A DNA stretch of 38,930 bases, from the IMG/VR virus record IMGVR_UViG_2545824708_000026; one strand, written 5' to 3'. The first letter of the stretch is position 1. Every line of letters starts with the position of its first letter. A program made the position numbers. Below are positions 21,001 to 24,000 of this stretch, one piece after another. Source of the DNA: a virus (Duplodnaviria > Heunggongvirae > Uroviricota > Caudoviricetes).

Positions 21001-24000
21001 CTTTTGGACTCCAGCTAACGTAGCCATCAAAGCGATCGGTGTTAGGTTTCCCGCCATCCAGATATTCAACCAGATAGCCTTCGTCCTCGCCGTTTTCTCC
21101 GGCAGGAAGCTGCCAGCCACGAAAATCGTTATATGCCTGTCTCGTCATCGGAAAGGCGTTAATCAGTTTTACGCCAATATGCTGGGTCATAAAATTACCT
21201 ATAGAGTTGGGAATAAAAAGCCCCGCATCGCGAGGCTCATTAAATGGACTTTGTGATTTGCAAAAAAATTATTTCAGGCACTGAGTCCTGATGTACTCCT
21301 GCAGGTAGTTAACCTGCGCGGTTATCCTGTCGATTCCACTTCTGAGACGGTAATAATTGAGTTCAGCATCTGCTGTAAGTCTTGGGCTTTCTCCATCGCC
21401 CATGCTGCTGGCTCCGGTCGTTGACTTTGCACAGGTGGCGGCGACTTGCAGGCGCTTACGACCAGCAGAAACATCAGCACGGAGGCTTTCGATAGTCGCG
21501 TTAGCATCAGCAAGCTCCTTTGTGTATCTGGCGTCGAGTTCTGCTACATCACGTTGACGCTTCTGCATGTCAGCAATTGTGGATGCGGCCTTATCGCGCT
21601 GCTCTTTGTAGGCGATTGCGTTATCACGGTAATGATTAACAGCCCATGACAGGCAGACGATGATGCAGATAACCAGAGCGGAGATAATCGCAGTTACTCT
21701 GCTCATTGCTGCCCCCACAAACAGACTTCACGCTCAATCTCACGGCGAGTCATCAGCCCTTTCCATTGCTTACCGCCAGCGTATGTCCAGCGACGTAGCT
21801 GGTCACATGCGCCCTTGATATCGCCCTGGTTGATTTTGCGAAGAAGCGTCGATGTTCTGAAATTTCCTGCGCCCACGTTATAGACGAACGAATAAAGAGC
21901 GCCGCGCGTTGTTTCCGGTATATCGACTTTGATGTACGGGTTAATTTGTCTGGCGACCGTGGCAAGGTCTTTATTCAGGAGGGCTTTGCATTCTGCTTCG
22001 GTATACGTTTTACCGAGCATGATGTCTTTTCCGGTGTGTCCGTGACATACAGTCCATACACCAACAATATCTTTGTATGGTATGTAGCTGACACCTTCCA
22101 GACCATCGTTACCACTTGGGCCAGTGATTAACACAGATGCTATAGCAATAGCCCCGCCACTTATCGCCGCTATTACGCTATTTCGTAGTGCCGGTGACAT
22201 TGCCATTCAATCTGTCCTCGCGCTCTTTGCGCTTGTAGTACCAGTTGATGCCAAATGTGCCGACAGTACAAAGAATACCAATGATGACAGCCCAGTCATT
22301 CAGGGAGAGAATGCCACCCATCGCAGTCAGTCCTCCGAAGCTGTAACTGAACCATTCTCTGATTTTGTCCATACGGTACATGCTCTACCCCTTCATTGAG
22401 GGGATTTGCTCTATTTAATTAGGAATAAGGTCGATTACTGATAGAACAAATCCAGGCTACTGTGTTTAGTAATCAGATTTGTTCGTGACCGATATGCACG
22501 GGCAAAACGGCAGGAGGTTGTTAGCGCAACCTCATGCCACCCGCTTTCACGAAGGTCATGTGTAGAAGGCCGCAGCGTAACTATCACTGATGAATTCAGG
22601 ATAGCCAGTGGCTACGGCTCAGTTATGGTGCTGGTTAACGGACTTGAACCGCTACCCATTCGCTTACAAGGCGACTGCTCTACCATTGGAGCTAAACCAG
22701 CATGTTTGGCGGGACAGCGTGGACTCGAACCACGATAAGAAGGTTAACAGCATTCCGTAATGACCTTTATACGACTGACCCAAATAAAAAAAGCCACCGT
22801 TGCAACTTAAGAGTCACTAACGGCAGCTTATGCGAATAGTGTTGCTCATTTGCTCAATGATGTCAACACGTTCTATGCTACATGTTTAATTTTCTCTACA
22901 CGTTTCCGGTTTTTAAACGCACTATCCAGAACTGGGTAAATCATAAACAACGAAGCATTGAGGATTTCGTCAACTTCCCGGCGACAGGTTGCGAGCGATG
23001 GTTTTTGAATACGCCCGCCGCCCCGGCATAACATCTTGCGAGGTCTTGCGACACGATGATAGTAAGATGCAATGGCATGCTTGGAAGATCCATGAGCGTA
23101 GTAGCTGAGGAGGATGCCAAAGGCTTTCTTGTCAATGCACATGACGGAATCGACGACCTGAGAAATCAACATTCCATCATCATCATTACACATTGGCCTT
23201 GTCATAACTCTTCCCGGCTCTACGCTCTCCATGAACTTCGCTATTACGCTGCTCATGCGCTTTTCCAGACGACCTGAATAAACCCATGCGCCCCACAGTT
23301 CAAGCCAGCCATTCAGCCAATCGTGCTGTTCTTTGGTGAGGTTTAGTTCTCTTATGCTCATCGTCTTCCCCTCTTGCCCTGTTTGACCATCAGGACGCCG
23401 TTAACTATTACGTGACGCTCGCCTTTTCTGTCTCGGTTGTACTTGAGCACTGTTCCTCTTGCGCAGGAAAGCATCCTCGCCACTTCGGTCTGATTGCCTC
23501 GTGTCTAGATAAGAAGCTCTGGTATCGTTTGAATTGTGGCGTTCATACGTTCTCCAGTTCGGTGATTTTTATTCCAAGCCGTCCGCCTGGTACTTTCACA
23601 CCACGAATTACGCGAATGTCATCGAATTGCTCGTCGTCTTCCGCAAATCCGGCGTGGATAAGGGAGTCGAGTAAACCTTTCAGGATGTTGTCGAGGTCGC
23701 GGCGGCGGGAGTCTGGAACGTCTGCGATGACTTTGATGCGGAGTCGTGATTTGGTGAAAATGTCTAACTTAAGTTGGCGGATGATTTGCTGAACGTCTTT
23801 TCGGTATTTCTGGCCTTTATCGCTGATGTAGTATTGGCTTCCCCGTCTTCGCCAGTAGGTATTCACCGACGGTGGGTACGGAAGCACAAACTGATATTCG
23901 TTCATTGGACAAACACCCTCCCATTGTTAACCAATTTTTTAAGGGTAAGCACAATGGCCCGATCCATTTCAGCCCTTCGCTCTTCCCTGCTCATATCTCT

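Follow-up and report, generated by a model that had tools for sequence, protein, structure and literature searches.

Why should a temperate phage place two transfer RNA (tRNA) genes at the head of its late operon? The question is raised by IMG/VR virus record IMGVR_UViG_2545824708_000026 (Duplodnaviria; Heunggongvirae; Uroviricota; Caudoviricetes), a stretch of 38,930 nucleotides (nt) which we analysed as a whole and call the window, and in which an original prediction had placed a tandem of tRNAs between the antiterminator gene Q and the lysis genes. The window is a segment of the E. coli chromosome with an Sf6/P22-like prophage integrated at argW. By sequence comparison, the tRNA pair is the late-leader cassette of phages 21 and Sf6; the prediction was correct, for an element that was already known. 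We consider it quite probable that, in this phage 21-type leader cassette, the threonine tRNA replaces a host tRNA cleaved by the P2 nuclease Old and the asparagine tRNA likely does the same for the host tRNA-Asn. The genes are laid out as follows:

22707 to 22781, minus strand: tRNA-Asn(GUU), 75 nt, discriminator G73, encoded CCA, anticodon at 22748-22746, called by ARAGORN and Rfam.
22702 to 22706, minus strand: spacer between the tRNAs, AACAU, 5 nt.
22626 to 22701, minus strand: tRNA-Thr(UGU), 76 nt, encoded CCA, anticodon at 22668-22666, called by ARAGORN and Rfam.
22752, minus strand: G30U substitution in tRNA-Asn, making a U30·C40 mismatch in the anticodon stem.

Both regions are genuine tRNA genes. 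As predicted, one UGU and one GUU gene lie 5 nt apart, and ARAGORN, which had been proposed as a check, called both regions, as did Rfam. Against RF00005, tRNA-Thr scored 61.5 bits (E=4e-11) and tRNA-Asn 45.9 bits (E=8e-07), well past the gathering score of 29, so that neither can be regarded as a chance match, and a permissive Rfam scan of 22370-22900 returned nothing besides these two. The span first given, 22625-22780, was off by one base (22626-22781), and the order, UGU then GUU, named the right pair but not its succession along the transcript, where tRNA-Asn comes first and tRNA-Thr second. A plus-strand open reading frame (ORF) of 50 amino acids antisense to both tRNAs (22608-22760) was treated as spurious.

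Both tRNAs have U8, G18-G19, a T-loop of the UUCRANY type, a 15-48 Levitt pair and a 3' CCA, and the Levitt pair covaries, being A15·U48 in the phage and G15·C48 in the host. The one exception is C14 of tRNA-Thr, which replaces the near-universal A14; this site is C or U in all relatives. The sets of identity elements used by the synthetases are well established: tRNA-Thr carries those of the threonyl-tRNA synthetase (G1-C72, C2-G71, G35 and U36), and tRNA-Asn those of the asparagine enzyme (G34, U35, U36 and G73). The threonine cloverleaf had been said to fold cleanly, which does not hold, given C14 and a non-Watson-Crick G27·A43 (22675/22659) atop the anticodon stem, next to U28-A42. In tRNA-Asn, single mismatches had rightly been seen in three stems; they are U4·U69 (22778/22714), which had been misnumbered U4-U68, U13·U22 (22769/22760) and U30·C40 (22752/22742).

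The pair is widespread. The tRNA-Thr is identical at 76 of 76 positions to that of phage 21 and Sf6, and is thereby the tRNA-Thr21 of published work (PMC12445682); tRNA-Asn is identical at 74 of 75, the sole difference being G30U, and the 156-nt cassette as a whole is 99.4% identical to that of phage 21. Matches to a 601-nt region around the tRNAs came from 177 phage records and from 1,395 of 5,426 complete E. coli genomes; they are annotated as antiterminator Q, tRNA-Asn, tRNA-Thr. The tRNA-Thr itself occurs in 346 and the tRNA-Asn in 368 of the 5,426 complete genomes (∼6-7%). Homology with phage 21 runs from Q to ∼62 nt past tRNA-Thr, where a different lysis module begins, and homology with Salmonella P22-like phages runs from the late terminator tR' through the holin gene; amid these mosaic surroundings, the cassette is a linker that has been conserved. 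Among 108 IMG/VR relatives, whose loci were chosen by a 21-nt match inside tRNA-Asn, diversity per site was 0.0085 in tRNA-Asn, 0.066 in tRNA-Thr and 0.19-0.57 in the flanks. The spacer reads AACAT in 57 relatives, AATAT in 51 and GACAT in 2. Stem-breaking variants are singletons while loop variants occur in 2-8 copies, the pattern expected of purifying selection on a working tRNA.

What the threonine member can do is indicated by work on the P2 prophage, whose Toprim nuclease Old is switched on when Gam inhibits RecBCD (Govande et al., NAR 2025, PMC12445682). Cells in which Old has destroyed tRNA-ThrU are rescued by phage tRNA-Thr(UGU) species, the UGU anticodon class being needed for this rescue (PMC12445682). 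The tRNA-Thr21 of phage 21 protects against Old and is resistant to cleavage in vitro, a property ascribed to C28U/G42A together with a shorter anticodon stem (PMC12445682). At positions 28-30/40-42, host thrU reads CUG/CAG and the phage tRNA-Thr UCG/CGA, with G27·A43 unpaired in addition; in the window, as in tRNA-Thr21, the paired CNG motif is changed and the stem shortened. The window also encodes the trigger of the nuclease:

34068 to 34484, plus strand: lambda-type Gam (RecBCD inhibitor), Pfam PF06064, 213.7 bits.

Resistance to Old and rescue from it are published for the identical sequence and would carry over to this prophage by that identity. The tRNA-Thr would decode ACA, a codon over-used by the phage and otherwise read only by host tRNA-ThrU, and would withstand Old through the loss of the paired CNG motif (U28-A42 for C28-G42) and the shortening of the stem by G27·A43. 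The attacker of the host tRNAs would be a P2-like prophage resident in the cell, or else a related nuclease. Since the prophage itself encodes Gam, tRNA-Thr most likely sustains late protein synthesis under nuclease attack. Gam was found in 1 of 4 cassette-bearing contigs, just 4 of 121 IMG/VR loci reaching far enough towards the early region.

The timing of such a supply would be set by the late leader, the elements of which are:

22873 to 23361, minus strand: gene of a Q21-type late antiterminator, 162 amino acids, PF06530 Phage_antitermQ, 87 bits.
22831 to 22866, minus strand: late promoter pR', -35 TTGACA at 22866-22861, -10 at 22843-22838, transcription start A at 22831.
22858 to 22843, minus strand: Q-binding element ATTGAGCA/AATGAGCA, within pR'.
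22782 to 22829, minus strand: intrinsic terminator tR' of the late leader, its U-tract ending one base ahead of the tRNA-Asn 5' end.
22382 to 22625, minus strand: untranslated stretch of 244 nt from tRNA-Thr to the holin start, no Rfam match at E<=1.
21269 to 22381, minus strand: lysis cassette with holin (22178-22381), SAR-type endolysin (21703-22206), Rz (21269-21718) and an embedded Rz1 ORF (21322-21513); Pfam PF16080, PF00959 and PF03245.

The predicted location, between Q and the lysis genes on the late-transcript strand, is borne out by the PF06530 Q on one side and the holin/SAR-endolysin/Rz-Rz1 cassette on the other. The Q region shares 98.9% identity with phage 21 Q plus downstream sequence, and the -35 of pR', the Q-binding element, the -10, the start site, the pause element and tR' are base-for-base those of phage 21, whose leader is experimentally characterised. 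A simple scan for sigma-70 promoters and terminators, which is blind to weak -10 elements and long-stem terminators, returned no pR', tR' or internal tRNA promoter, nor any sigma-70-like promoter between tR' and the holin; pR' and tR' were placed instead by the phage 21 annotation (OL657228.1, from which the positions of the pR' features were transferred) plus a direct fold. The tR' hairpin (-20.2 kcal/mol, z=-5.15) is followed by UUUUUUUAUUU and does not differ from the terminator annotated in phage 21. The claim that both tRNAs are expressed from the Q-dependent late promoter also stands on this leader identity, which puts them past a terminator that Q overrides; because they directly follow a leader 100% identical to that of phage 21, expression by Q read-through is the natural reading. 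Transcription would start at 22831 and, without Q, polymerase would halt at tR' (22829-22782), before the first tRNA, while Q-modified polymerase would read past tR' into tRNA-Asn, tRNA-Thr, the lysis genes and the virion genes, and host processing enzymes would excise the tRNAs from the long late transcript. For the prophage BTP1 in lysogen cultures, both tRNA genes are excluded from the list of highly expressed prophage genes (more than 100 transcripts per million), and directly behind them the late operon begins (PMC7067206). In the gap between tRNA-Thr and the holin, a minus-strand hairpin at 22544-22498 (-28.3 kcal/mol, z=-3.4), followed by GUUUUG and kept in the consensus of the relatives, may act as a weak terminator or mark a site of processing.

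Codon use in the phage genes was compared with that of 42 MG1655 genes. ACA makes up 17.9 per 1,000 codons of the late genes (28% of Thr codons) against 5.4 per 1,000 (10%) in MG1655 (odds ratio 3.5, p=5e-14), a use by the phage ∼3.3 times that of E. coli genes, and thrU, the only ACA reader of the host, is single-copy (PMC12445682). Asn codons stand at 48 against 38 per 1,000 (odds ratio 1.29, p=7e-4). Of the enrichment in ACA and AAC/AAU suggested for the late genes, the first part is thus found, while the second amounts to a 1.3-fold excess of Asn codons without extra AAC bias. The coat gene is an exception, with AAC as 17 of its 20 Asn codons.

For tRNA-Asn, the argument runs through a second nuclease as well. 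Old also cuts host tRNA-Asn(GUU), more slowly (PMC12445682), and AriB of the PARIS system targets Lys(UUU), Thr(UGU) and Asn(GUU) tRNAs, cutting between positions 40 and 41, with U39, position 41 and U16 as determinants; T5 variants of all three tRNAs are required for full rescue (PMC12409363). The anticodon classes of the cassette, Thr-UGU and Asn-GUU, are among these targets. At positions 28-30/40-42 host asnT reads CGG/CCG, a paired CNG motif, and phage tRNA-Asn AAG(U)/CUU; judged by its bases, the phage tRNA-Asn appears to be without the Old and AriB cleavage motifs of the host tRNA. At positions 16, 39 and 41, phage tRNA-Thr has A16, G39 and G41 and phage tRNA-Asn A16, C39 and U41, so that the phage differs at all three from the host, which has U16, U39 and either A41 (Thr) or C41 (Asn). 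The tRNA-Asn would then do the same job as tRNA-Thr, for a host tRNA that Old cuts more slowly and that AriB attacks as a secondary target. That it is the other member of a counter-defence module of two tRNAs, mirroring the substrate range of Toprim nucleases such as P2 Old and PARIS AriB, is a proposal we make tentatively, and one somewhat more likely to be wrong than right. As no Lys(UUU) tRNA is present in the window, full PARIS escape is not expected from the published results. Our literature search found no published link of a lambdoid tRNA-Asn with PARIS or Old, and no published AriB test of phage 21-type tRNAs.

The G30U allele is the only lineage-specific element of the cassette. G30, which pairs with C40, is present in phage 21, in Sf6 and in 120 of 120 sampled IMG/VR loci, and an exact search for the U30 allele found one IMG/VR contig, L125, which is 99.82% identical to 16147-26618 of the window, with 19 differences; it is a close yet independent relative, and a sequencing error is thereby excluded as the source of U30. 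The allele is absent from all 368 E. coli genomes with tRNA-Asn, the best matches being one mismatch away (370 of 374 records). With G30U the Rfam score drops by 9.4 bits, from 55.3 to 45.9. The change is rare, structure-breaking, specific to one lineage and destabilising in silico, although the functional tRNA-Asn of T5 also has a 30·40 mismatch. It fits a class of rare, probably mildly harmful variants, and may weaken this copy of tRNA-Asn, probably lowering its activity. That it is a further step of escape and not damage, by unpairing C40 at the Old site-2/AriB cut, is less likely. The two other mismatches, U4·U69 and U13·U22, recur in phage 21, in Sf6 and in no fewer than 115 of 122 relatives. 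The second cloverleaf had been called unusual or possibly decaying; two of its mismatches are therefore family traits, and only the third, a rare single-base allele of this lineage, sets it apart. Decay of the whole Asn family was considered and rejected, the identity elements and CCA being intact, the score above threshold and one low-diversity allele being shared by 92 of 122 relatives.

Several observations weigh against the replacement of nuclease-cleaved host tRNAs as the role of the cassette. Protection by tRNA-Thr21 was demonstrated by plasmid expression in a two-plasmid Gam/Old system, and not with phage 21 or the window prophage on a P2 lysogen (PMC12445682). The tRNAs are late, Q-dependent products, whereas Gam triggers Old early. 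The share of ACA is 26-38% in the early genes, so that its enrichment is phage-wide and may simply reflect a lower G+C content, while the enrichment in Asn codons is small and the AAC/AAU preference no stronger than that of the host. About one third of all positions differ between phage and host tRNAs, and the changes at 16, 39 and 41 are possible without selection by AriB. The activity of tRNA-Asn is left in doubt by the family score of 55 bits against 73 for the host, and by the two family-wide mismatches. For the copy in the window, G30U has a predicted cost of ∼6.6 kcal/mol in cloverleaf stability and lowers the anticodon-stem probability from 0.68 to 0.00; this energy difference is only indicative, because folding, a weak guide to tRNA quality, fails to yield a cloverleaf for even the host's own asnT and thrU.

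Could the tRNAs serve plain codon supplementation, topping up ACA and AAC/AAU decoding in the late burst, with nuclease resistance as an incidental property? This is the interpretation given in the SfI and phage L papers, and it draws on the 3.3-fold enrichment of ACA, on thrU as sole reader of that codon and on the AAC-rich coat gene. It fits the asparagine member poorly: Asn codons are merely 1.3-fold enriched, without extra AAC bias, and E. coli has four asn tRNA genes. The SfI authors, who found the ACA bias, had no explanation for the Asn tRNA (PMC3636060). Supplementation also leaves unexplained the exact two Old-resistance changes in the Thr anticodon stem and the 27·43 mismatch kept by two unrelated anticodon-arm lineages at the locus. 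We therefore judge it unlikely as the sole account, while noting that supplementation and the replacement of Old-cleaved tRNAs are compatible. A role in cis, with the tRNAs acting as RNase P/RNase E processing sites that remove the pause/terminator leader and set the 5' end of the late mRNA, decoding being secondary, would suit a tRNA-Asn that begins one base after the tR' U-tract and a cassette that is a conserved linker joining different Q and lysis modules. It is very improbable, since lambda, P22 and many relatives share the late-operon design without a tRNA, since anticodons, identity elements and CCA are conserved although a pure processing signal needs none of them, and since the identical Thr tRNA acts in trans, with rescue requiring the UGU anticodon class.

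It may also be asked whether the Asn gene of this prophage is a decaying or non-functional tRNA carried beside a useful Thr gene. Three stem mismatches, an Rfam score of 45.9 (phage 21 allele, 55.3; host, 72.6), a G30U seen solely here and in one close relative, the predicted loss of the anticodon stem and the relaxed selection on late genes that comes with prophage residence all point in that direction. Yet bar position 30 the allele is that of 92 of 122 relatives (phages of Escherichia, Salmonella and Shigella), far less variable than its flanks and with stem-breakers rare, and its identity elements and CCA are intact. Mismatched stems are moreover found in tRNAs that work: the T5 tRNA-Asn, a contributor to PARIS escape, is naturally mismatched at 30·40 and 27·43 (PMC12409363), and the T-stem of host tRNA-ThrU contains an A52·C62 mismatch (E. 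coli thrU, locus L003, 389-464), which means that a single stem mismatch is no sign of a defective tRNA. We regard a decaying or non-functional Asn gene as improbable.

Comparison with known systems places the cassette more precisely. In phage 21 (OL657228.1, CPT_21_64/65) the succession of Q, pR', Q-binding element, tR', tRNA-Asn, 5 nt and tRNA-Thr is the same in position, order and spacer; downstream, phage 21 has the S21 pinholin module and the window prophage an HP1-family holin, and the virion module of the latter is P22/Sf6-like, unlike that of phage 21. At this site, the annotations of Sf6, SfI, BTP1, SPN9CC, mEp506 and other P22-like and lambdoid phages also list the tRNA-Asn/tRNA-Thr pair. 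Sf6 has an identical terminator and tRNA-Thr, an identical tRNA-Asn bar G30U, and shares with the window prophage the argW site and the adjacency of integrase and tailspike genes; the Sf6-group phages differ from the window in their Q genes and Q-binding elements (Sf6 alignment columns 1-50), and G30U is in none of them. Phage L / ST64T has the same site and Asn tRNA as the window, with a Leu(UAA)-like tRNA in the second slot (L089, 4285-4353) whose first 13 nt (5') are as in the phage Thr tRNA.

More distant parallels are found in T5 and P1. The nuclease-resistant tRNAs of T5, to which the cassette can be likened, include the same Thr(UGU) and Asn(GUU) classes, with position 39 not U and irregular anticodon stems (28·42 unpaired in Thr, 27·43 and 30·40 in Asn); in contrast to the cassette, T5 is a lytic phage with ∼24 tRNAs of unrelated sequence under their own promoters. 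P1, a temperate coliphage, carries tRNA1 Asn-GUU and tRNA2 Thr-UGU as a tandem in the same order, 2 nt apart and near ban/plp (L127, 1425-1578), its Thr tRNA being ∼80% identical; both are canonical (74.5 and 72.9 Rfam bits), and P1 Thr keeps CUG/CAG and a full 5-bp stem. The ileZ-argN-argO tRNA genes of Stx phages, between Q and stx, are likewise in a Q-dependent late leader of E. coli lambdoid prophages; they have other anticodons, for rare Ile and Arg codons, and unrelated sequences, and their classic explanation is that they supplement codons of stx and the late genes. The SfI work (PMC3636060) cites an ileX gene near stx2.

The second slot of the cassette varies among relatives. In 9 of 120 IMG/VR relatives (L011, at 1215-1368, L032, L077, L078, L088, L095, L096, L106 and L108) it holds a chimeric tRNA that begins with 26 nt of phage 21 type and continues like host thrU, with 27·43 and 28·42 unpaired; it scores 47 Rfam bits and draws no ARAGORN call, and a tRNA-Gly(UCC) comes next at both loci that were checked, L011 and L078. 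Its composition suggests recombination of phage and thrU-like tRNA genes at this slot, and the unpaired 27·43 in the chimeric copies also is consistent with selection for short stems. Other variants (L089, L014, L038, L041 and L087) have tRNA-Asn with a Leu(UAA)-like tRNA, or tRNA-Asn alone and then a terminator, and at two loci the 3' third of the Asn gene is replaced downstream of the T-loop, with loss of the ARAGORN call.

The remainder of the window fits an Sf6-like prophage, whose layout is matched by the order argW, integrase, tailspike:

1 to 933: host gene yfdC (formate/nitrite transporter family).
1009 to 1083, plus strand: tRNA-Arg(CCU), argW, intact, called by ARAGORN.
1209 to 2426: tyrosine integrase gene, followed directly by the tailspike gene.
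2611 to 4698: P22-type tailspike gene, with P22-like virion genes next.

Positions 1-2426 correspond to the left attachment site (attL) of the prophage, with host DNA at the left end, and the right end of the window falls within the early-left region, short of the right attachment site (attR). ARAGORN finds three tRNAs in the window (Arg-CCU, Asn-GUU and Thr-UGU). An attachment-site role for the Asn and Thr tRNAs was considered and rejected, the attachment-site tRNA being argW (1009-1083), which adjoins the integrase gene. Past the late-leader tRNAs, the gene order is Q, nin region, replication genes, cro/cI and the leftward early operon with N.

Several other genes deserve mention. Just downstream of the lysis genes, a 159-amino-acid protein (20711-21190, minus strand) has a Tad2-like (Thoeris anti-defence 2) domain (PF11195, 78 bits), by which it is a second candidate counter-defence gene of the late operon. 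Two genes that overlap and lie immediately downstream of cI, where lambda has rexAB (30647-31953, plus strand), match PADLOC PDC-M24 weakly (A, E=1.5e-3; B, E=6e-7), as well as DUF6978 and DUF1828, and may encode a prophage defence system. The nin region has an HNH_3 + NUMOD4 protein of homing-endonuclease type (24170-24679, minus strand), with, promoter-proximal of it in the rightward operon, a Rha/KilAC antirepressor-like gene (24717-25439) and a Dam methylase gene (26178-26765). A full-length lambda cIII thermoregulator (RF01804, 88.5 bits; 33824-33882, plus strand) stands at the start of a cIII-like ORF, with Gam next; after Gam come Bet- and Exo-like ORFs, recognised by eye from ORF translations and lacking confirmation by a search. 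An sRNA-Xcc1 match (RF02221, 69.3 bits, gathering score 53) lies at 38179-38267 (plus strand) in the early-left region, on the opposite strand of a 120-amino-acid ORF.

The element is of a known kind: annotations of the cassette go back to the sequences of phage 21 and Sf6, and the function of its Thr member was worked out in 2025. It is of use as background, in that a common type of E. coli prophage pairs an Old-resistant late-leader tRNA with Gam, the trigger of Old. If tRNA-Asn is indeed a second counter-defence tRNA, a dedicated, Q-timed tRNA replacement kit would be present in the lambdoid and P22-like prophages of ∼6-7% of E. coli genomes. The Asn partner and its natural G30U variant offer simple reagents for asking whether temperate phages, with small tRNA sets, escape Toprim tRNA nucleases in the manner of the lytic T5.

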